Part shown: positions 1-45,800 of the stretch, in pieces
How the letters are laid out: every line of letters begins with the position of its first letter
Numbering within the stretch: the stretch's first letter is position 1
IMG/VR virus record: IMGVR_UViG_3300031993_000006
Span: 195,975 to 259,974 of that record
Source of the DNA: a virus
Lineage: Duplodnaviria; Caudoviricetes
DNA: 64,000 bases
Reading direction: 5' to 3' (one strand)
The notes under the pieces: model-generated
What the model was told of the DNA's origin: nothing
The model's input: only the letters and a program-made list of their open reading frames with translations
Database searches by the model: none
Position numbers and translations under genes: made by a program

Positions 1-632
1 TCCTTCTGCCAACGGAGCTGTATACCGTACTCGTCTATGAGGTATCCGTTGCACCGGGTCCATGTTCCGTCAAGGAACCTGTCAAGATGTCTATGCCGGC
101 ATACCGGAAGCTTGATGTGCTCGCCACCGGTGCATTTCAGTCGGACATATCCATAGAAATATCCATCTTCGGTCAGTTCGAAATCAGCACATTTGCTGGA
201 TACTTCGATACCGGCATCGGATAAGTCTGGCTTACGTGGAATCGAAGATTCTATCTTGTCCCATAGCCGTTCGTTATATTTCCCTTCGCCGGCGAGCTTG
301 TCGAACATCGCGACACGCTTTGCTTCCTTGGACAACACTGCGCGGAGCTTGCCGCACAGTTGGTTGGTCAGTGAATTCAGCATACGGGCACTTAACCATG
401 TATCAACATCAAAATGATTGTAGTCAAGGTATTTTGGAAGTGCGAACTTGAACTTTGTAATGTTGAATTCATGCTCGATGCCATCTTCATACCATATGTA
501 TCCGTTCAACCACATGTCATCGCACAGCAATTGCATCACGCGACGCCATTCCGCAAGCAGAACTGACAGTTCATTCTGTTTGCACTGGTTTGCGTACTTG
601 CTTATGATGTGATTGGTCGAACGAGTAAACAT
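1..632 (-). CDS. tnpB: TnpB/Cas12f-like RNA-guided nuclease, N-terminal part (truncated by window edge)
   Basis: Manually translated open frame MFTRSTNHIISKYANQCKQNEL...YVRLKCTGGEHIKLPV...IQLRWQK starting 3 nt after the tnpA stop. RuvC motifs are not visible, so the call rests mainly on position. Confidence 0.65.
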   Translation of the reverse strand, partial: MFTRSTNHIISKYANQCKQNELSVLLAEWRRVMQLLCDDMWLNGYIWYEDGIEHEFNITKFKFALPKYLDYNHFDVDTWLSARMLNSLTNQLCGKLRAVLSKEAKRVAMFDKLAGEGKYNERLWDKIESSIPRKPDLSDAGIEVSSKCADFELTEDGYFYGYVRLKCTGGEHIKLPVCRHRHLDRFLDGTWTRCNGYLIDEYGIQLRWQK

Positions 633-634
633 GA

Positions 635-1222
635 CTATTCTTCCTTGGCCTCCAGGGCTTCCTTCATCTTCTTGGCCTTATTCTGCCCGCGGCGTGCTCC
701 GTATAGGCGACAGCAGAAACTTGTAACTATGGCTATCATGTCTTTTATAATATCCTGCTCGTTTGTATCATTGGGATACATCACATCGACAGTACAGTTC
801 AACCTTGATAGCAACCGTTCTATATAGTTAAACCCAAACCGAGTTAATCGGTCGCGGTTCTCGCAAATTACCGTCGTCGGGTTGCTTGAAATCATTTCCC
901 AGAACTTTGGACGGTTGTCATTCATCCCCGATGCAATTTCCTTGTATATGGCGGCAACCTTGTATCCGTTCTTCGCGGCATAATCCTTGCACCGTTCTAC
1001 TTGTCTTTCAAGGTCATCCTTCTTGTCATGGGTACTTACGCGAGTATAGATGACTACCCGTTCTTCCTTGACTAACGGATTGGCTATGTCCATGTCGACA
1101 TAGATACTCTTGGTATCTGGGTCCTGAAAAGCACCCGGTATCTTTCCGGCATGGAACTTGTCGTTTGCCGTCTGGTAGCTCATGCCGTTTTCCTTGGCGT
1201 ATTTGGATAACTTTACTTTCAT
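635..1222 (-). CDS. tnpA: IS607-family transposase (serine recombinase with N-terminal HTH)
   Basis: N-terminal HTH (VKLSKYAKENGMSYQTA), catalytic IYTRVS, EIASG, ENRDRLTRFGF, C-terminal SFCCRLYG. Confidence 0.95.
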   Translation of the reverse strand: MKVKLSKYAKENGMSYQTANDKFHAGKIPGAFQDPDTKSIYVDMDIANPLVKEERVVIYTRVSTHDKKDDLERQVERCKDYAAKNGYKVAAIYKEIASGMNDNRPKFWEMISSNPTTVICENRDRLTRFGFNYIERLLSRLNCTVDVMYPNDTNEQDIIKDMIAIVTSFCCRLYGARRGQNKAKKMKEALEAKEE

Positions 1223-1389
1223 TTCTATACCCAGTTTATATTTCCTACCATAGAAATTATCTCATATTTACATCATATAATGCATTGTTGTATTATTTTT
1301 TACTATATTTCTAGTATTATGATGAAGGACGATATATGGCATCTCACGGGAACCTCCCGGAAATCCTAAAGAAAACTTACGGAAACGAG

Positions 1390-1688: not shown

Positions 1689-1932
1689 TTAAAACCGGCG
1701 TGATGCTGGCCTACTTGGAACCAATACGGATGTTTTTGCCTTTTATCCTGGCTGTTTTACATCCGTCTCCTTTTGGTTGTATCGAACTTACTCCAAGTAG
1801 TCCAGCGTCCGCCTAGTGTTTGGATGCAATTTGGCGTCCGTTAAAAGGATGGTCAAATGTGCGTGAGCTACACGTCCATTTGTAGTCTCGAGAGGGACGA
1901 CAAAACGCGCGCATTGCATCCATTAGCCAGCG

Positions 1933-2006
1933 AACGGTGTAGCTCAGCGAGGTAGAGCGGGGGAGGAAATATCCCAGGGTCGCCGGTTCGATTCCGGTCA
2001 CCTTGT
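1933..2006 (+). tRNA. Degenerate/pseudo tRNA (anticodon loop GGAAATA, no U33)
   Basis: Canonical D-arm TAGCTCAG..GGTAGAGC and T-arm GGTTCGATTCC, but mismatched acceptor stem and atypical anticodon loop. Confidence 0.55.
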
Positions 2007-2027
2007 AGCTGGCAAGCCTTTTATTAT

Positions 2028-2101
2028 CGCGGGGTGGAGCAGTTGGTAGCTCGTCGGGCCCATAACCCGAAGGTCGCGGCGTTCGAGTCCCGCTCCCGCT
2101 A
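2028..2101 (+). tRNA. tRNA-fMet (CAT)
   Basis: CGCGGGGTGGAGCAG..GGTAGCTCGTCGGG-CCCATAA-CCCGA; three G-C pairs in anticodon stem; C1 unpaired; C33. Confidence 0.92.
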
Positions 2102-2204
2102 CGAAACCCAAACACCCAAATACACCCACGGCGAATCCTCGGAATCGCCCGCAGTGTTCATGGCCCGGGCCATGGATAATCCCCGGGGAAATTTTGATAT
2201 GGAA

Positions 2205-2279
2205 GGAGTCATAGCTCAATTTGGTTAGAGCACCGGCCTGTCACGCCGGAGGTTACCGGTTCAAGTCCGGTTGGCTTCG
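2205..2279 (+). tRNA. tRNA-Asp (GTC)
   Basis: Cloverleaf, CCGGC-CTGTCAC-GCCGG, GGTTCAAGTCC. Confidence 0.95.
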
Positions 2280-2720
2280 CTAAGCGATACCGCTTTATGT
2301 TCTTTTGGATGGATAATCATGGCGTCGACTCACCTCTTCGTTTTGACCTCCTTTTTGGCTTTCTGCAGCGAGCGGTATCGTTTGAAGTTTGCCGATACAT
2401 GTAGGTTGTTCCTTTTTCTCACTTGAAAAGTTTACAACCCGTGTCGGCTATCAATTTCCCGGACCTGTACAACTCTGTTAAAATTTTGTTCCGACTGGCT
2501 CATACAGGCCCGGGCAACCTCATTAAGTAGTGCCTTATTGTTAAATACGGTTCGAGTCCGGGCGGTCCTTTCCTCGCCAAAAGTAAGGAAATCTGGACAG
2601 CTAGAGGAGGAAATATGGTTGGCGATTCCGGGTGCTATGATGTTTTGGACAGTGGCCACATAGGAAGTTCCTTTAATTTCGATTGGATGAATTTTACTTC
2701 CCGGCGTTCTGTCCTATCAT

Positions 2721-2796
2721 GTCCCGGTAGCTCAGTTGGACTCAGAGTGCAGCCCTCCGAAGGCTGAGGTCACAGGTTCGAGCCCTGTTCGGGACA
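2721..2796 (+). tRNA. tRNA-Arg (CCG)
   Basis: Cloverleaf, CAGCC-CTCCGAA-GGCTG. Confidence 0.93.
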
Positions 2797-2824
2797 CTAC
2801 GATTGAATTTGATTTGTGCTATCC

Positions 2825-3122
2825 GGGTTGCTAGCAGTTAACGAAAATGTTAGCAAAACTTAACTAAATATAACGAAATATTCTATTGAAATACATAGAA
2901 AATAACCTATATTTAGAAATGCCTAGTTTGACATGCCGACCGTGTTAAGGCTCTTCAGCAATGGAGTAGGACTAGGCAAGTTAGTCGTATTGCTTGATGC
3001 ATATTAGGAATATCGCGTAGATGCGGCTGATTAAATGCCATTACGGCCTACCCAGCAATGGGCAAGGTAGGAAATCACATAGGTCTATCTCTTGGTAGAT
3101 TTAAGTAGGTTTCAGTTAATGG
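2825..3122 (+). mobile_element. ORF-less IS607-like miniature element carrying a structured RNA (putative omega-RNA), copy 1
   Basis: Closely similar inverted copy at 41977-42264. GG at both ends, IS607-type right end GTAGATTTAAGTAGGTTTCAGTTAATGG, compensatory changes between the copies. Confidence 0.7.
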
Positions 3123-3176
3123 TCTTCAGACTCTCCCAGTTAGCTTCTTAAGGGATGTCCTGTCGCATTACCAATA

Positions 3177-3384
3177 CGCGGCGGTGAGTGGCAGGGCATC
3201 CCGCTTGAGTGTCTTCATTGGATAGACGGGGACTCCCACTTTATGCACAGTAGGCCAAACGCACCTTCCAGCCAGGGTCACGATGCCCCTCCAGGTCCTG
3301 CCGGCGATATTGACGCCACGACTGAGGTGACGAGGTAACTGCGCAATATGAGGCGCCACGGCGCGGCGGTACCCACTGGCCGCG
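3177..3384 (+). ncRNA. Putative structured ncRNA of unknown class
   Basis: Closing helix CGCGGC-GGTGAGT/ACCCACT-G-GCCGCG and inner helix GGGCATC/GATGCCC; GC-rich; lies among RNA genes. Confidence 0.4.
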
Positions 3385-3422
3385 GGAGAAACAGTTGAGA
3401 GGCTGTTGCAGTGGGACGGTTT

Positions 3423-3495
3423 TCCGGAATAGCTCAGTTGGTAGAGCGGCTGCATCGTAAGCAGCGGGTCGCTAGTTCGAGCCTGGCTTCCGGAG
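3423..3495 (+). tRNA. tRNA-Thr (CGT)
   Basis: Cloverleaf, GCTGC-ATCGTAA-GCAGC; U1-A72, G73. Confidence 0.88.
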
Positions 3496-3839
3496 TAACT
3501 GTGGAGATAGAATAGCTTGCGCGGCATCGAGATGCCTGAATGTTGTCGCGTGGAGTTTCTTGGGGTGACAGGTATCTAGCCCCATGTTATTTTTTGGAGT
3601 TTTTCTCCCCTGCCTTTCGGGCGGAGGGTTCGCGCGTGGTCATCGAAGTGGTCACGCGAAGGTAAAACGATAACCGGGCGTTAATACCCGGACTATGTTT
3701 AAAAAACGCTTGTGTTCCTTTTGTAATTTGGCCTTAAAAGGAATGAAAAGACTGGCTATATAGCGTGATGGCTAAAACCGTAATGCGGTGCGATTGATGC
3801 TGGTCAAAGAGGCAAGTTATGGCGTTTCTTGCCTTACCC

Positions 3840-3912
3840 GGGCGGGTAGCTCAGTTGGTAGAGCAGCGGTAGCGAATGCCGCGGGTCGCTGGTTCAAGTC
3901 CAAGTCGCTCCA
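3840..3912 (+). tRNA. Degenerate/pseudo tRNA (loop AGCGAAT, nominal CGA, no U33, no long variable arm)
   Basis: Canonical D-arm and GGTTCAAGTCC; imperfect acceptor and T stems. Confidence 0.55.
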
Positions 3913-4281
3913 CTAAAGAATTTGATAAAGTTTGCCGTGCAGACGAATGGTTTTCTCGTGGGTTTTCCTACTTCATTGAACGAGATTATCGTGAGTCTGC
4001 ATTGAGAAAGCCCGTATAGCCATACGGGAAACCTCAGGGGTATGACAGGCACCCGGGCATACTTGTCTGTTTTACTATGTCTTCCGGGTAATTGTAGTGC
4101 AATGACAGTTTTCTCTTTTTGTTTCTTTTCGCATTACAGATATACGGGGTCCGGCTCCAAAGGTAATCTGGAAGCCGTGAGTACATTACATTATTGTGCA
4201 TACCCGGGTGGCTCCGGGAGATTCCTGGGTTGAATTTCTTGGATGGCCGCTAGCAGGTTTTCAAGGGAAACAACCCATTCC

Positions 4282-4357
4282 GGTTCCGTAGCTCAGTTGG
4301 ATTCAGAGCGTCTCGCTACGAACGAGGAGGTCCCAGGTTCGAGCCCTGGCGGAACTA
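4282..4357 (+). tRNA. tRNA-Arg (ACG)
   Basis: Cloverleaf, TCTCG-CTACGAA-CGAGG. Confidence 0.93.
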
Positions 4358-4489
4358 CTATTTTGATTTTTCTGAATCCCGCTAGGTACTTAGGGGGATA
4401 GGGCAGGACAGCGTGTCAGAAGCGTTGATTACCGGGGCGATGCATTGCCAATGGGAATCTAACTGACCCCGCGCGTTTGATTGTTTGAT

Positions 4490-4564
4490 GTTCCGGTAGC
4501 TCAACTTGGACAGAGCGTCTCCCTCCTAAGGAGAAGGTTGCGCGTTCGAGTCGCGCCCGGGATA
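4490..4564 (+). tRNA. tRNA-Arg (CCT)
   Basis: Cloverleaf, TCTCC-CTCCTAA-GGAGA. Confidence 0.93.
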
Positions 4565-4571
4565 CTAAACT

Positions 4572-4651
4572 CGGGGTGTAGTTCAGCCAGGTTATTATAG
4601 AGTGCTTGCTTTGGAAGCAAGATGTCGTCAGTTCGAATCTGGCTACCCCGA
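4572..4651 (+). tRNA. tRNA-Pro (TGG)
   Basis: CGGGGTG acceptor, CTTGC-TTTGGAA-GCAAG; enlarged D-loop. Confidence 0.9.
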
Positions 4652-4666
4652 CGAGAAGATTTTTAC

Positions 4667-4758
4667 GGAGGCGTGGACGAGTTGGTCTATGTCGCACCCC
4701 TGCTAAGGGTGTAGGGCAGATAAAACTGCCCTCGCTAGTTCGAATCTAGCCGCCTCCT
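4667..4758 (+). tRNA. tRNA-Ser (GCT)
   Basis: CACCC-CTGCTAA-GGGTG with long variable arm. Confidence 0.93.
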
Positions 4759-4765
4759 CTAACTT

Positions 4766-4838
4766 TCCGGATTAGCTCAGCTGGTAGAGCACCTGATTTG
4801 TAATCAGGGGGTCGGCGGTTCGAGCCCGTCATCCGGAG
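4766..4838 (+). tRNA. tRNA-Thr (TGT)
   Basis: CCTGA-TTTGTAA-TCAGG; U1-A72, G73. Confidence 0.92.
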
Positions 4839-4935
4839 CGGATTTTGGGAGATTCCCGGCGGTTTCCCGAAGAACTGAGAAAGACTCATGTTATATGTCC
4901 TTGTGTGTCACCGGGGTCCCTTTTAGGTAACAACA

Positions 4936-5091
4936 ATGAAGAAGAAACCATACACTTCACCAAAGATGGAAGTCGTCAATTACGAAGCCGAAACAAGGCT
5001 TCTCGCAGGTTCTTCCACTGAAGACGATGACCCGTACTGGAAACCGCCTGAGACTCCGGCAGGATGCCAGTCTGCATGGTGGTGCGGGTAA
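4936..5091 (+). CDS. 51-aa peptide with YxxPxxEVV...LLAGS leader-like motif
   Basis: Manual translation MKKKPYTSPKMEVVNYEAETRLLAGSSTEDDDPYWKPPETPAGCQSAWWCG; AGGT RBS upstream. Confidence 0.75.
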   Translation: MKKKPYTSPKMEVVNYEAETRLLAGSSTEDDDPYWKPPETPAGCQSAWWCG

Positions 5092-5099
5092 GGCTTTAC

Positions 5100-5172
5100 G
5101 GCGCTATCGTCTAGTGGCCAAGGACAAGGCCCTCTCAAGGCTTAAACACCGGTTCAAATCCGGTTGGCGCTA
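5100..5172 (+). tRNA. tRNA-Glu (CTC)
   Basis: TCGTCTAGTGGCCAAGGAC D-arm, AGGCC-CTCTCAA-GGCTT. Confidence 0.93.
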
Positions 5173-5880
5173 TAGTTTAATCGTTCCGTTCGCAACCGAG
5201 ATTCTCCGGAGAATATCCCGGGGGACAACGAGGTTGATATGGAACTGGCCCTTCGTGGTACTTGCCGCGAAATACGGGCCGTAATCATCGAAGTTCCTCA
5301 GCAGGGTTCTCCCGTGGAATCTCGTGGTGCTCCCGTTGCGGACAGTATCCTCTCGTCGGGCGCGGTAGCCGTTATCTGCCCAGCATTCCTTTATTCGTTC
5401 GCACCGGTCGTTGATGCTTTCCATCGTGAGGCCGTATCGAGCGAGTTCGGCGAGAAGCCGGGGTTTTGCAACAAGGGCGTACTTGATTTCCTCTGGGTGC
5501 CACTCGGGTTCTGACCGGAAGCGGTCAATCCAGAGCAGCATATAGGAATCGGTGAGTATGTCCGGGTTGATGAACCATCCGGGCTTTCCCTCGGTATCAT
5601 CCGGGGAATGCGTGGTGAAGAGTTCGAAGCTGTATGTCCGGAGGGCGTGGCCTTCACCGGTACAGGAATCGACTCCGTATGATGTCGCAGCCTTTTCGTC
5701 ACACTGGTATGTTTTATTTTTGAGATAGAACGATATGTCGATGCCCAGCTTCTGTGTGCTTGCGTCTTCATTGCGCTTGACTTCGGAGAATCCCCAGGTA
5801 TCGGTATATAGGTTCGCGTCAAGTATAGTACCGAGGTACTGTTCCTGAGCGTGGTCTTTCTTGTAAGAGTGATGGAACAT
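5170..5880 (-). CDS. Hypothetical protein, probable PD-(D/E)xK nuclease fold
   Basis: EQYLG...QKLGID...CDEKAA...FEL pattern. Confidence 0.6.
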   Translation of the reverse strand: MFHHSYKKDHAQEQYLGTILDANLYTDTWGFSEVKRNEDASTQKLGIDISFYLKNKTYQCDEKAATSYGVDSCTGEGHALRTYSFELFTTHSPDDTEGKPGWFINPDILTDSYMLLWIDRFRSEPEWHPEEIKYALVAKPRLLAELARYGLTMESINDRCERIKECWADNGYRARREDTVRNGSTTRFHGRTLLRNFDDYGPYFAASTTKGQFHINLVVPRDILRRISVANGTIKL

Positions 5881-6188
5881 ACTTGATGTTTATAGATTTC
5901 GACCCGGTAGTTTAAATGAGCTATGGCTAAAGACCAAGTGCTTAGAACACTGGCGGCACGAGGGCGCAATGAAGTTTTGTCGAATAATGGATGTGTCAAT
6001 CACCGCCGGCAATGCAGGTAATTAGTCCTGTCCGGTTTTCTTTTGTGCCTAGCTAAGGTACTGCGGAATCGTGGTATATCTGGCGCCCTGGTCAATGCGC
6101 AAGGCCCAAAGGTTCCCGATGAAGGTGGACGGGACAACGGCACTCTTTTGATATAATTTCCTGATTGTTATTGGTTTGAGGTAGGAAT

Positions 6189-6707
6189 ATGTCTGTATTG
6201 CATATAATGGTGGGAATACCGTCATCGGGGAAGAGTACATACGCCAAGAAGCTTGCCGAGGAAACCGGTGCTGTAATCATATCTAGCGACGGAATCCGCG
6301 CGGAACTGAGCGGTACCGAAGAGTATAACGAAGCCCAGAATTACAAGGTGATTTGCACCATCCGTGGCAGGCTCCGCCATCTCATAAAGGACCACGATGT
6401 CATCATAGACGCTACCAATGTCCATGTTGCCGATTGGAGGGACTACATCGACCGATGCCCGCCCGATATCACCGTTAAGGTGCATTGGTTCGAGATTCCG
6501 CCTGAAGTCGCTATGCAGCGTATGGAGGGGCGTGAGCGCAAGGTCTGCAAGGAAGTTCTCCGGGACAAGTGGAACACGATGACCTCCAACAAGAAATTTC
6601 TCGAAAAATACATAAACCCGAAAATATCGTGTACATTACGCCCGATATGCACTAGATTACCTCGTAGGATAACTAGAGGTATTGTATATGGCAAAGAAGA
6701 AGCGTGA
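6189..6707 (+). CDS. P-loop kinase (AAA_33 / polynucleotide-kinase-like)
   Basis: GIPSSGKST, ISSDGIR, IIDATN, RxxxR lid. Confidence 0.85.
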   Translation: MSVLHIMVGIPSSGKSTYAKKLAEETGAVIISSDGIRAELSGTEEYNEAQNYKVICTIRGRLRHLIKDHDVIIDATNVHVADWRDYIDRCPPDITVKVHWFEIPPEVAMQRMEGRERKVCKEVLRDKWNTMTSNKKFLEKYINPKISCTLRPICTRLPRRITRGIVYGKEEA

Positions 6708-6867
6708 TTTTGTGCTTGAAACCGACGAACAGCGTAAGGAACGCTGGGCCAAGCAGGCCAAGACGGTGAAGACTTTTGCCCGCGTCTGCGGCATCGATGC
6801 TAAGAAAATCAAGCGCGAACGCGAATGGACTGAGAAGCTAGCCGAAATGGCCCGGAGGGATTACTAG
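6688..6867 (+). CDS. Hypothetical protein
   Basis: GAGGT RBS, 59 aa ORF. Confidence 0.6.
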   Translation: MAKKKRDFVLETDEQRKERWAKQAKTVKTFARVCGIDAKKIKREREWTEKLAEMARRDY

Positions 6868-6876
6868 GGATTTACC

Positions 6877-6966
6877 GGCGGGTTGCCCGAGTGGTTATAA
6901 GGGAGCGGTCCTGAACACCGCCGACGTGCGTGAGTGCGTCCATCCGTTCGAATCGGATACCCGCTT
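6877..6966 (+). tRNA. tRNA-Ser (TGA), C33
   Basis: GCGGT-CCTGAAC-ACCGC, long variable arm, GTTCGAATC. Confidence 0.88.
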
Positions 6967-7036
6967 TTTCTAAGGCGCCGTGCAGAAATGCGCGGCGCTT
7001 TTGCTATATTTGTTAAATATAAATGATGAGGAATTT

Positions 7037-9389: not shown

Positions 9390-9449
9390 TTCTTTCAAAA
9401 TTGCTATATTTGAAATATCAAAAGGAGTTTTTATGAAAGGGATACTAAT

Positions 9450-13627: not shown

Positions 13628-13705
13628 GAAAAAATTAACCCGGCCGTCGGCGCCGGGTTTTTCATTTGCTATATTTCTAATAGAACCTATGGAGAATTAT
13701 AGCCG

Positions 13706-16702: not shown

Positions 16703-16778
16703 TGAACTATGACCGCTCCACGAGGGGCGGTTTTTGCTATATTTGGTATTAGGCGAATACAAGTAAAATTAAAGAACG

Positions 16779-19395: not shown

Positions 19396-19453
19396 ACCGT
19401 CAGGTAATCAGAAAATTGCTATATTTGTAATACAACCAAAAAGAGGTACAATA

Positions 19454-20535: not shown

Positions 20536-20632
20536 AGTTTTGTAAAATTAAACTTACAATTAATCCTACTTGATGCTCATCGGTGGGATTTTTGCTATAT
20601 TTGTAATATCGATACAACACAAGGAGTTCATT

Positions 20633-29226: not shown

Positions 29227-30775
29227 CTGCCTCATAAAATGTATATAAAAGTATAGACAGAAATGCCTATATCTTAAATATAGCAATTTACGGTCGCGTG
29301 AGCGACTTGGTTCCATAGGCGATTAAAGAAATCGTCCACCATTGCCGCCCTACCATATCTGGTAAGTAAGCAATGAGCATCATTCTCGGTAGTTTCACTA
29401 CACCCCGAAAGGGATGTAGCCAGAGCTTCCAAGTCCGCTGGCGTGAATTTCCGACGGGCAATGTCGGTATTGAATCTCTTATTTAGTTCGATGAACAAGG
29501 CTTCCGCAAGGATGTTGATTGCTGCGTTGGTATCACGGTCGATAGCCAGTCCGCATTCCTCGCAGATGAACTCTCGTTCGGACAATGAAAGTTTTTCTTT
29601 CACATGTCCACAACCGGAACATTTCTTCGAAGACGGGAAGAACCGCCCGACTTTCAAAAGCAATGTTCCATACTTGGCACTCTTGTATTCTAGGAATCTA
29701 CGAATCATGCCGAATCCGCAGTCCGAAATGGCAGACGCCAACTTGTGGTTGGACACCATGCCCTTGACATTCAAGTCCTCTATGGCGACAACCATATTGT
29801 GCTTGACTATCTCTGTCGTCGCCTTGTGTATCAAGTCCTTACGGTAGTTCTTGATATAGGCATTCTTCTTGTCAAAAGTCTTCTTGATATCCTTGTAATG
29901 CACTGAATTATACTTTCGGCGGGACATCATTTTTTGATATCGTTTAAGACGCTTGTAATGCTGTTTGATGATATGCTCGTTGGCGACGCATTCGCCTGTC
30001 GATAACTGCATCAGCGTCTTAACACCCATATCTATACCAACGATACCGTTATCGTCCGTTCCATACAAACTATTTGTATCATCATAAGTATAGGATATCG
30101 AAATATACCAATGGTCGTTGCTTCCCTTGGATACAACGAAGTTGTTTATCTTACCGGATAGACACTCCGGCCGTACTGGCTCCGCCAGTCTAACCGGTGT
30201 CTTGATTAACGGTAACTTGATATGAGTAGAATCGATAAGCCTAGCCTTGTCGTTCTCTATGTAGAATGCGCGCTTTGACTTGTATTTCTTCCGCTTGGGA
30301 AAACCGAACAGTTCCGGATTCTCGTAATGCCGTTTCTTGGCAAGTACGAAGTTCTTAATTGCCTGGTCCATAGAGCCTTTAGGACTCTCGTACATCCAGC
30401 CAACCTTCTGTGCATTGAACTCCTTGCGAAGTCCCGCGCACGTCACTGATTCTTGCCCAGCAGCCTTCTTGGCAAACCAGGTATCCCTAGCCCAGTTGTA
30501 TGCATAGCGAGCACAACCGCATGCGCGGTTCAACGCGCTTGCCGTCTTGCTGTCGACTGTCAACATTATCTTTTGGGCTGTACTTATCATACATATAGGA
30601 AATGCCCCGAAGACACTTAGTGTAGGATTTAGCATCTCCAGGGCATCTAAACTCTTTTTCGCATTGAAGAAATCCTACTAACTTCAATTTATACATAAGT
30701 TTATATAATTGCAGATTTATTTTATCGATATCTTCCTATACATTTATATATGAAATTATGTACTAGATACCATCT
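29227..30775 (-). mobile_element. Non-autonomous tnpB-only IS607-like element
   Basis: Low-GC block bounded by AG at both ends (AAGGAG|ATGGT ... TATACATTTTATGAGGCAG|ACTAG); removing it restores an RBS-ATG. Confidence 0.8.
29274..30635 (-). CDS. tnpB: TnpB RNA-guided endonuclease (start possibly 30590)
   Basis: GCARYAYNW, GIDMGV (RuvC-I), IEDLNV (RuvC-II), FPSSKKCSGC..CEEC zinc finger, DRDTNAAINI (RuvC-III). Confidence 0.95.
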   Translation of the reverse strand: MLNPTLSVFGAFPICMISTAQKIMLTVDSKTASALNRACGCARYAYNWARDTWFAKKAAGQESVTCAGLRKEFNAQKVGWMYESPKGSMDQAIKNFVLAKKRHYENPELFGFPKRKKYKSKRAFYIENDKARLIDSTHIKLPLIKTPVRLAEPVRPECLSGKINNFVVSKGSNDHWYISISYTYDDTNSLYGTDDNGIVGIDMGVKTLMQLSTGECVANEHIIKQHYKRLKRYQKMMSRRKYNSVHYKDIKKTFDKKNAYIKNYRKDLIHKATTEIVKHNMVVAIEDLNVKGMVSNHKLASAISDCGFGMIRRFLEYKSAKYGTLLLKVGRFFPSSKKCSGCGHVKEKLSLSEREFICEECGLAIDRDTNAAINILAEALFIELNKRFNTDIARRKFTPADLEALATSLSGCSETTENDAHCLLTRYGRAAMVDDFFNRLWNQVAHATVNCYI

Positions 30776-41199: not shown

Positions 41200-41970
41200 C
41201 GGGTAACTCCATAGGGCAAACAGGGGAGATACTTCAGACTGATATACGGGAGCTACACGGGGGAACCCATCGGGCGAATACATAGGGAACCCATAGGAGA
41301 AACCATAGGGAACCCATAGGAGCCAATAGGGAGAAAACAAAAAATAAAAAATAAAAATCCCCCATAGCCACGGAATCCACAGAAACGGCCACGGGAGCCA
41401 TCGCAGATACGGACCCTCCCCTCTATACCCTAGAACCACCGCAGGGGCTACGCGCCCCGTTTCCCGGCTCCCTGCAAGGGGTACTCCCCCGAAGGTACCC
41501 CACCCCGTCCACGAACACCCCCTCGCACGGGCGAACACGGGGTGCCACGGGGGAGGACCTACGGGGTACTATGGGGCCACCTGTGCGGATGTGCAGGGGG
41601 TCTGCCCGGATGTGCAGTGGGGCTAACTCGGGGGTTAGGGGGGTTAAACCCGTGTTCAACGACAGGTTCATCCCGCGCTTCCCCAAAAGCTCAACCCGAG
41701 TTAGCTCCGTCTAACAACCCGTGTGTCCCCCAAGTGTCCCCCAAGTGTCCCCCAAGTGGCTCCCGACCGCCGAGGGGAATTAGCCGGGGCTAAGTGGGTG
41801 AACAGGTGTGCAGTACGGAGGGGCTACTGAGGAGAACCGGACGGGGCCACGCATGGCGCCCCATGGAGCTACCCGGTGGGGAACATATAGGAACCGTGGG
41901 ACAGCCGGATGCGTTTTTGGAACAGGGACTTTGAAAAATAAAAAATAACCCCTGGCCGGGGAGGGCAGGG
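41200..41970. other. Non-coding region with short tandem repeats; candidate replication origin
   Basis: CATAGG-type repeats 41281-41336, A-tracts, (GTGTCCCCCAA)x3 at 41723-41758, C-rich to G-rich switch near 41530. Confidence 0.5.
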
Positions 41971-41976
41971 GCGCTA

Positions 41977-42264
41977 CCGTTAGCTGAAACCTACTTAAAT
42001 CTACCAAGAGATAGACCTATGTGATTTCCTACCTTGCTCATTGCGGAGTAGGCTGTAACGGTACTTAATCAACCGTATCTACGCGATATACCTAATATGC
42101 ATCAAGCGACACGGCTAATTTACCTAATCCTACTTCCTTGCGGAAGAGCCTTAACACGGTCGGCATATCAAACTAGGCATTTTTAAATATACGTTATTTC
42201 CATTAGCAGATTTAAGTATATTTAGTTAAATTTTGTTAACATTTTTGTTAACTGCTATCAACCC
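41977..42264 (-). mobile_element. ORF-less IS607-like miniature element with structured RNA, copy 2
   Basis: Reverse-complement homolog of 2825-3122. Confidence 0.7.
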
Positions 42265-44392: not shown

Positions 44393-44461
44393 ATCTTCTC
44401 CTTCGGGCGCATCCGGGGAGTACCCGGGTGTAGGCCACATGTCAAATATAGCGAAAGCTGG

Positions 44462-45763: not shown

Positions 45764-45800
45764 ATCTAGATTCCTTTTTTGATTCAAATATAGCAAAAGT

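Follow-up and report, generated by a model that had tools for sequence, protein, structure and literature searches.

A probable gene-less miniature of a tnpB insertion sequence, with an omega-RNA-like scaffold, in uncultivated giant phages

Introduction

Two related stretches of approximately 290 bp, which lie on opposite strands and appear to encode nothing, are found in a 64,000-nt stretch of phage DNA (referred to throughout as the window), which corresponds to positions G000:195975-259974 of a 259,974-bp IMG/VR virus record. They raise the question of what kind of element can be retained in a phage genome without genes of its own, and of how such an element might spread. A preliminary description of this DNA proposed that the two stretches are non-autonomous derivatives of an IS607-type insertion sequence, which would keep only the ends, the promoter, and the omega-RNA scaffold of a tnpB element, be mobilised in trans, and provide the phage with a dispersed repertoire of guide RNAs.

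Gene-less elements that carry guide RNAs of TnpB are already known, and the case presented here is unusually well supported. In the present analysis, the boundaries and the anatomy of the repeat are established, together with its relationship to a full-length tnpB element of the same genome, the selection acting on its RNA, its distribution and mobility, and the nature of its ends and insertion sites. The alternative explanations are then weighed against one another.

Copies, boundaries, and anatomy of the mini-element

The two copies in the window (copies A and B; Table 1) align from end to end, from GGGTTG to ..AA(T/C)GGT, with 85% identity, and their flanks do not align, which agrees with their initial recognition as homologous copies in unrelated surroundings. 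In both copies, the homology runs from GGGTT to ...AA(T/C)GGT, and the boundaries of the mini-element are read accordingly as GGG...GGT. The GG boundaries that had been reported are therefore retained in part, as the right coordinate is now located one base further on. The first G of copy A may have been derived from the target, which leaves this boundary with a margin of ±1 nt. Neither copy contains any ORF of 40 or more amino acids, in agreement with the description of the repeat as ORF-less.

The search for additional copies recovered a third one in the same genome (copy C, g87381-87679, minus strand), outside the window and with 93% identity to copy A, and a total of 43 copies overall. The complete copies are all 288-302 bp in length, with forms of ~289 bp and ~300 bp, and every one of them ends exactly at GGT, while the left ends of some other copies are truncated or replaced. 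The left ~95 nt of the mini-element is AT-rich and, in copy A, stop codons are found in all three frames inside the first 20 nt. The promoter-like box noted at the outset is present in its complete form, TTGAAA-16-TATATT, in copy A, and the TATATT box is retained in nearly all the copies, but the -35 hexamer is missing from copy B, where it was taken out by a 10-bp deletion.

Some of the other copies also preserve traces of rearrangement. The copies at L075:2359-2647 and L107:91-390, for example, have identical right flanks, unrelated left flanks, and diverged left ends, a pattern which suggests recombination between phages within the mini-element. A solo left-end remnant of 22 nt (GGGTTGCTAGCAGTTAACGAAA) is found beside a terminator at L090:5925-5960, on the minus strand, near, but not at, the site of a whole mini-element in the related contig L080, and may represent the footprint of a lost copy.

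Table 1. Features of the window and their coordinates (position 1 is the first nucleotide of the window).
Feature	Position	Strand	Remarks
Mini-element copy A	2825..3123	+	299 bp, GGGTTG...TTAATGGT; limits from alignment with copies B and C and 40 others
Copy A, left end	2825..2885	+	~70% identity to the left end of the full-length tnpB element
Copy A, promoter-like TTGAAA-16-TATATT	2886..2913	+	10/12 consensus positions; homologous to TTGCAA-17-TATATT before the full-length tnpB
Copy A, omega-RNA-like scaffold	2920..3123	+	Eight helices; invariant motifs CGACCGTGTTAAG, AGGAAATCAC, GTAGGTTTCAG..AAYGGT
Copy A, would-be guide flank TCTTCAGACTCTCCCAGTTA	3123..3142	+	Start ±1 nt; placed from the scaffold end and by analogy with CboIStron
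Mini-element copy B	41976..42264	-	289 bp; short form
Copy B, conserved TATATT box	42186..42191	-	From the alignment of copies
Copy B, omega-RNA-like scaffold	41976..42179	-	From the fold and the covariation alignment
Copy B, right flank: would-be guide AGCGCCCC..., overlapping a flank-encoded intrinsic terminator	41934..41975	-	Hairpin followed by a U-run
Resident IS607-type element, cut by the window start	1..1340	-	tnpA 635-1222 (serine recombinase, 195 aa); tnpB 438 aa, from 632 leftward
CAAATATAGCAAA motif, minus orientation	1299-1310, 1407-1418, 7000-7011, 9400-9411, 13665-13676, 16733-16744, 19415-19426, 20591-20602	-	
CAAATATAGCAAA motif, plus orientation	29276-29287, 44444-44455, 45786-45797	+	

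A full-length tnpB relative in the same genome

The origin of the mini-element is indicated by a sensitive blastn comparison with the whole genome, in which nucleotides 1-69 match g145524-145590 and nucleotides 244-298 match g147460-147514. These two matches delimit a full-length relative of 1992 bp (g145524-147515), which starts with GGGTTACTAAC.. and ends with ..CAGTCAACGGT. Between them lies an intact gene (L019:1268-3001) that encodes a TnpB of 577 aa, and its stop codon is located 15 nt before the right end of the element. The protein has a Cas12f1-like TNB domain, with the RuvC-type motifs GIDVN, VMENL, and NADCN intact and two CxxC pairs, and, among proteins of solved structure, its best matches are Cas12f and TnpB. 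This gene, which is the likely source of the effector, is located outside the window, 48 kb upstream.

The left end (alignable over ~60 nt) and the promoter are common to the mini and full-length elements, as are the right end (...AACGGT) and three RNA motifs that are single-stranded and invariant. The scaffold of ~205 nt overlaps the last ~60 codons of tnpB in the full-length element. Given that the left end, the tnpB promoter, and the right end all align, the mini-element can be described as the full-length element minus the 5' UTR and nearly all of tnpB. The presence of this 1992-bp tnpB element, with the same ends and in the same genome, upholds the original view of the repeat as an ORF-less, non-autonomous derivative in which the ends, promoter, and omega-RNA scaffold are conserved.

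The left end of the full-length element (L019:1019-1024, g145518-145523) directly adjoins the start codon (ATG) of a short ORF on the minus strand, and an outward-facing promoter-like motif is found inside the element, ~42 nt from this ATG. The element may, then, be a source of promoter activity for the adjoining ORF.

The scaffold RNA and the evidence of selection

The 3' part of the mini-element, of ~205 nt, is predicted to fold into three domains, with z = -3.3 in copy A and z = -4.1 in copy B. The compensatory changes that had been observed between these two copies (CTTCA/TGGAG versus CTTCC/GGAAG, CCATTA/TAATGG versus CCGTTA/TAACGG, and those of the long middle hairpin) were confirmed, and recur in 33 distinct copies. 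In the alignment of these 33 distinct sequences of the mini lineage (alignment A4), 98.9% of the cells correspond to standard pairs, and 14 pairs are doubly changed. None of the 500 alignments of a shuffle control reaches the pairing observed in the mini-elements, and a control in which the partners are slid relative to one another yields only 31-39% pairing. The scaffold of the mini-element is under selection at the RNA level.

The comparison of nine mini and six full-length scaffolds adds a second line of evidence. In this alignment, the motifs CGACCGTGTTAAG, AGGAAATCAC, and GTAGRTTTCAGYYAAYGGT are unpaired and invariant, while the helices differ between the mini and full-length scaffolds, with 19 of the 46 predicted pairs being maintained even though both partners have changed. 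The invariant blocks form part of the coding sequence of the full-length element (..TSTVLRG.. and ..SIGNHEK..), and they are still invariant in the non-coding mini-element, which argues for a constraint at the level of the RNA. At the 3' end, the U of the terminal GGU pairs with the base (G or A) closing the 3' domain, and thus belongs to the scaffold helix.

Searches of Rfam, at both gathering and permissive thresholds, recovered only tRNAs in the window, with no credible match for either the mini-element or the right end of the full-length element. When matches at E values of up to 10 were considered, the mini and full-length scaffolds each had a single chance match to a snoRNA (E 1.8). No better fit to another Rfam class, which had been named as a possible refutation, was thus found, and, given that no Rfam family matches, the scaffold is best regarded as a separate, uncurated RNA family.

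Distribution and co-occurrence with the 577-aa TnpB

Pattern scans (two of IMG/VR and one of the JGI metagenome contigs) returned 82 matches, which fall into two types according to the spacing between the motifs. A spacing of 142 nt corresponds, in every case, to an ORF-less mini-element, and a spacing of 146 or 149 nt, also in every case, to the end of an intact 577-aa TnpB with 77-92% identity to the resident one. The 43 copies of the mini-element are found in uncultivated, related phage contigs, with 39 distinct flank pairs, and no TnpB-like coding sequence adjoins any of them. An HMM of the mini scaffold separates the two types, with at least 190 bits for the mini-elements versus at most 25 bits for the full-length scaffolds, and none of the full-length elements among the scan matches carries a mini-type scaffold.

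The candidate effector for the mini scaffold is the related 577-aa TnpB of the same genome, which has intact RuvC-type motifs, but the two scaffolds have diverged, with an identity of only ~55% in the stems. Given this divergence, and the lack of any full-length element with a mini-type scaffold among those found, the compatibility of the mini scaffold with this TnpB is not certain. The two do, however, occur together in the genome studied here (G000), in three others (G001, G002, and G003), and in three metagenome contigs. There are three mini-elements and one full-length element in G001, and G000 likewise has three mini-elements. In G004, a 36%-complete fragment in which a mini-element is present, no 577-aa TnpB was found within that fragment.

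Outside this group of phages, the scan pattern was absent from all 185,579 bacterial and archaeal genomes searched, and blastn with the mini-element found no match in 50,697 deposited phage genomes. A tblastn search of the same deposited phage genomes with the 577-aa TnpB returned only distant TNB-domain matches, and the family is absent from this set. The family comprises 924 protein clusters (E <= 1e-5), many of which are located on contigs of 200-450 kb. The protein search of the 185,579 prokaryote genomes recovered a single full-length relative, with 66% identity (L122, JAFYKO010000179.1), on a contig of 23 kb assigned to a Clostridia MAG from the cecum of the water buffalo, in which the element starts with GGGTT and ends with ..TTGGT. 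The samples that yielded the phage DNA are themselves apparently of ruminant-gut origin. The Clostridia contig hints at the habitat and the host group of the phages, or may be a mis-binned phage contig.

Mobility and empty sites

Mini-elements with 98.6-99.3% identity are located at unrelated sites, both in the same genome (L022 and L023, in G001) and in different contigs (L075 versus L030/L067). In one presence/absence pair, at loci that are ~75% identical, the mini-element is present in L073, between the end of a gene and a terminator, and absent from L077. These near-identical copies at unrelated sites, together with the presence/absence pair, indicate that the mini-element moves. The site of copy B is also occupied in L083 and L065, and the closest full-length mini-element to that of L083 is only 86.5% identical. 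As the same site is occupied elsewhere by diverged copies, the insert of copy B is considered to be old and inherited.

The expectation that empty sites would be found in related phages was borne out only by the diverged L073/L077 pair, and no empty site was found in IMG/VR for copies A, B, or C by exact-pattern scans (left flank + 1-8 nt + right flank). The flanks of copies A and B matched only tRNAs in five related phage records, which indicates that these five genomes are too diverged to provide empty alleles. The L060/L106 and L080/L090 contigs were also considered as empty-site pairs, and were dropped as too diverged or rearranged.

The diverged empty site of L077 (..ATTGGTG..) has only two of the three Gs, so the crossover can be placed only approximately. 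The form of the empty site was approached by reading the upstream ORFs through the rebuilt junctions (n=11). When the junction is rebuilt as left+GGGT+right, the ORF reaches a stop codon after 6-14 nt, before the terminator, in five of the 11 cases, whereas the left+GGT+right version places the stop ahead of the terminator in only one of the 11, and several ORFs run through the terminator. In the case of copy A, the empty site had been predicted as ..ATCCGG-TCTTCAG.., and the read-through favours ..ATCC-GGG-TCTTCAG.. instead, although only moderately (5/11 versus 1/11). The empty site is thus likely to be N-GGG-T, a form which is moderately favoured, versus ACGG at the right end of the element itself. 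Given that the left flanks have no motif beyond the run of Gs, the proposed TAM rests on the read-through of the ORFs and on analogy.

The ends and the search for a transposase

The junctions of the mini-element are GGG-T, at 23 left ends, and CGG-T, at 31 right ends, with flanks that are otherwise random, and the full-length elements (nine left and 26 right junctions) have the same GGG-T and CGG-T junctions in otherwise random flanks. The mini-type scaffold ends in ACGG. The ends are not inverted repeats, given that GGGTTGCTAGC.. and ..CAGTTAACGGT have only the direct GGT and CAGTTAAC in common. A classical MITE was rejected because there are no terminal inverted repeats, nor any duplication past the common GGT, and an IS200/IS605 (PATE) element was rejected because no Y1 transposase (PF01797) was found in the whole genome and there is no left-flank motif. 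Overall, the lack of inverted repeats, of a left-flank motif, and of a Y1 transposase, together with the GG-type flanks, fits IS607 and disfavours IS200/IS605, and the ends of the mini-element resemble those of an IS607-like element with a GG core.

No tnpA was found beside tnpB in the full-length copies examined, and no transposase that matches the ends of the mini-element was found either in the genome or in the related recombinase loci of G001 and G003. The sole serine tnpA of the genome belongs to the resident IS607-type element at the start of the window (Table 1), the ends of which can be placed near ..CCATAT.. and ..CTGATAT by comparison with a relative in G003 (G003:29718-31720; 69% identity). 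These ends appear to be AT-type, rather than GG-type. This element, originally delimited at 1-1344 and proposed for a comparison of its right end with that of the mini-element, proved to be a genuine IS607, with a serine tnpA and a tnpB, but with unrelated ends, and its sequence gives no support to it as either parent or mobiliser of the mini-element.

A solo IS607-type TnpA (MerR HTH and resolvase domain) is found in G001, and a second IS607 in G003, and no mini-like ends were found at the serine recombinase loci of these two genomes. Mobilisation in trans by the serine TnpA of the resident element, G001, or G003 is possible, although unsupported by the sequences. The left-end motif CAAATATAGCAAA was also considered as a common transposase site, and was rejected, as it is promoter-like and has ~40 copies genome-wide.

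Guides and insertion context

The homology between copies stops exactly at the 3' end of the scaffold, for which reason any guide would be derived from the flank. The 20-nt flanks that follow the three mini scaffolds and the full-length scaffold have no second match in the genome. The dispersed guide repertoire proposed in the preliminary description is not borne out, as none of the three predicted guides has a match in the genome other than its own flank, which makes selfish homing or retention likelier than a repertoire that serves the phage. Guides of this type are also expected under the homing/retention model of Meers et al. 2023 (PMC10055086).

The guide predicted for copy B is located in the flank, as had been anticipated, but most of it forms the 5' arm of a terminator hairpin encoded by the flank, with a folding energy of -15.3 kcal/mol, followed by UUAUUUUUU. 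Using a strict detector, an intrinsic terminator was identified 7-32 nt past the GGT in 11 of the 35 right flanks of mini-elements (approximately 19 by eye, including those of copies B and C), versus none of the 25 full-length elements and six of the 400 random windows. The terminator hairpin begins, in some copies, just 3-13 nt past the scaffold, and part of a guide of 16-20 nt would therefore be buried in the hairpin.

The mini-elements are co-directional with the upstream ORF at 27 of the 39 listed sites, based on an ORF heuristic, and many of these ORFs run into the left end of the element. The site of the mini-element tends, then, to be the last few codons or the 3' UTR of a gene, just before the terminator. 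A site of this type should be cheap for the phage, and should also define the 3' end of the RNA.

Two of the mini-elements are found next to tRNA genes. Copy A is located 27 nt past the tRNA-Arg(CCG) gene, within an array of 12 tRNAs (window positions 1932-6966, plus strand), and another mini-element, in L088, likewise follows directly after the 3' end of a tRNA. A strong hairpin of ~20 bp (window positions 3152-3203, plus strand) lies 28 nt downstream of copy A, before tRNA-Thr, with a 92-nt fold of -40.2 kcal/mol (z = -4.2) and no U-run.

Comparison with known systems

The stand-alone omega-RNAs reported by Altae-Tran et al. 2021 (as presented in PMC10691335) are mobilised loci, free of both effector and transposase, which are found in genomes that bear the effector, and for which function in trans has been reported. 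The mini-element resembles these loci, as far as this account describes them, in the presence of ORF-less scaffold copies and a related, intact TnpB in a single genome. It differs from what is set out there in its occurrence in giant uncultivated phages, as a separate lineage without a full-length twin and with GG-type ends, in the direct fusion of the tnpB promoter to the scaffold, and in being known from its sequence alone.

The PATE-like minimal elements of the IS200/IS605 type are also gene-less, with ends and an omega-RNA, and the TnpB is supplied in trans (Meers et al. 2023, PMC10055086). The mini-element shares with them the combination of transposon ends and an omega-RNA-like scaffold without genes. 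The PATEs belong to elements of the Y1-transposase type, their ends form hairpins, and their left flank contains a conserved TAM, whereas the genome of the mini-element has no Y1 transposase, and its ends are IS607-like, with no left-flank motif.

A parallel for the ends is provided by the CboIStron, in which the TnpA_S requires a strict GG core and prefers TGGG, and the TnpB recognizes the TAM TGGG, with a scaffold that ends in UCGG, the C at position -3 protecting the element itself (Zedaveinyte et al., bioRxiv 10.1101/2023.11.20.567912). In the mini-element, similarly, the boundaries are GGG-T and ..ACGG-T, the empty site would be NGGG-T, and the flanks are otherwise unconstrained. The present system differs from the CboIStron in its larger nuclease (577 aa) and in the lack of a group I intron, as well as of any serine transposase in the full-length copies examined, and the evidence presented here comes from sequences. 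Some TnpBs linked to IS607 have reRNAs derived from RAGATH-18, with a conserved RNA at the right end (PMC11061315), and, relative to the reRNAs covered in that source, the mini and full-length scaffolds differ in matching no Rfam family at E values of up to 10.

A proposed mechanism and its alternatives

The repeat is probably a gene-less miniature of a tnpB-only insertion sequence of uncultivated giant phages, which would use the 577-aa TnpB in trans and parasitise the homing or retention activity of this protein. Its homology to the tnpB element, the RNA-level selection on its scaffold, its mobility, and its co-occurrence with TnpB are all observed. Under this explanation, four parts of the parent would have been retained: the left end, the tnpB promoter, the omega-RNA scaffold of ~205 nt, and the right end. 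The promoter would fire ~7 nt upstream of the first helix, and the transcript would run through the scaffold into the flank, of which ~16-20 nt would act as the guide, and would usually end at the nearby, flank-encoded terminator. The predicted RNA would be bound by the 577-aa TnpB of the full-length element, loaded in trans, and the complex would cut the insert-free site (...NGGG-T-flank) either in the genomes of co-infecting relatives or in excision products, with recombinational repair then copying the mini-element into the cut site. Insertion at new sites would be effected by IS607-type serine recombination at a GG core, through a putative transposase.

A second possibility, which appears unlikely, is that the mini-elements have been domesticated as guide-RNA genes of the phage, through which TnpB would destroy insert-free, co-infecting relatives, in a form of RNA-guided marker exclusion, or would act on the host DNA. 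The long-term selection on the scaffold at the RNA level would be expected in this case, and the same can be said of the promoter that each cassette carries, of the three cassettes per genome in G000 and G001, and of the occupation of the copy B site in three diverged contigs, which points to an old, retained insertion. The guides match only their own flanks, however, with no second target in the genome, and the sites vary widely among related phages, with near-identical copies at unrelated sites, as would be expected of a transposon. The cutting of insert-free relatives would, in addition, be indistinguishable from selfish homing. A more tentative version of the preferred explanation, itself rather doubtful, sees the mini-elements as an independent, long-lived lineage of guide-only homing elements, tolerated in dense phage genomes, which would hijack the 577-aa TnpB against insert-free co-infecting relatives. 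The stop codons in three frames at the left end, the promoter of the element itself, and its insertion a few codons before the stop, ahead of the terminator, fit this version, which would amount to an RNA-guided form of marker exclusion between giant phages, comparable to the T4-type homing endonucleases, but with its specificity contained in an RNA cassette of 300 bp.

Two further explanations were considered. It is quite improbable that the mini-elements are inert deletion relics of tnpB, moved by a transposase and with no functional RNA, the conservation of which would merely reflect recent spread. Several copies are 99% identical, and there are truncated or replaced left ends and the 22-nt solo remnant, as such relics would lead one to expect, but copies with as little as 85% identity keep 98.9% of their pairs, 14 of them doubly changed, the three single-stranded motifs are invariant despite being non-coding in the mini-element, and the complete copies are all 288-302 bp in length and end exactly at GGT. 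There is very little probability, finally, that the scaffold has been re-used without TnpB, whether as a small regulatory RNA or, where transcription units end, as an element for insulation or processing. The strong enrichment of the mini-elements just before intrinsic terminators, in the same direction as the upstream gene, would be consistent with this, as would the absence of any such enrichment in the full-length elements (0/25). In this case, however, the unpaired motifs that are conserved coincide exactly with those found in the TnpB-linked scaffold as well, the element co-occurs with the 577-aa TnpB, its ends are still transposon-like, and no Rfam family matches.

Whatever its mode of spread, the mini-element represents a natural TnpB guide-RNA scaffold that has evolved free of the coding constraint of tnpB. 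Given that the mini-element is non-coding, its invariant bases matter for the RNA, rather than the protein, and they provide a map for the engineering of the scaffold of the uncharacterised, phage-only 577-aa TnpB family. The gene-less guide cassettes known from the Y1-type (IS200/IS605) elements are extended here to an IS607-like, GG-core element of giant phages. The pre-terminator sites and the built-in stops suggest how a parasite may persist in tightly packed viral genomes. If the loading in trans and the cutting of empty alleles are real, the mini-element would represent a simple RNA-guided system of gene drive and exclusion between phages.

Other features of the genome

The motif CAAATATAGCAAA (reverse complement TTTGCTATATTTG, which is extended -10-like) is present in ~40 copies in the genome, with an orientation that switches strand in blocks, and is usually found 10-40 nt upstream of start codons. 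It is probably a promoter motif of the phage itself. One of its copies falls within the full-length tnpB element, in the left end, facing out toward the adjoining gene.

A second intact TnpB, of 453 aa, with OrfB_IS605 and TNB domains, is encoded in the window (29274-30635, minus strand), and belongs to a family unrelated to that of the 577-aa TnpB. The genome contains, in total, eight or nine TnpB-like ORFs, of at least five families.
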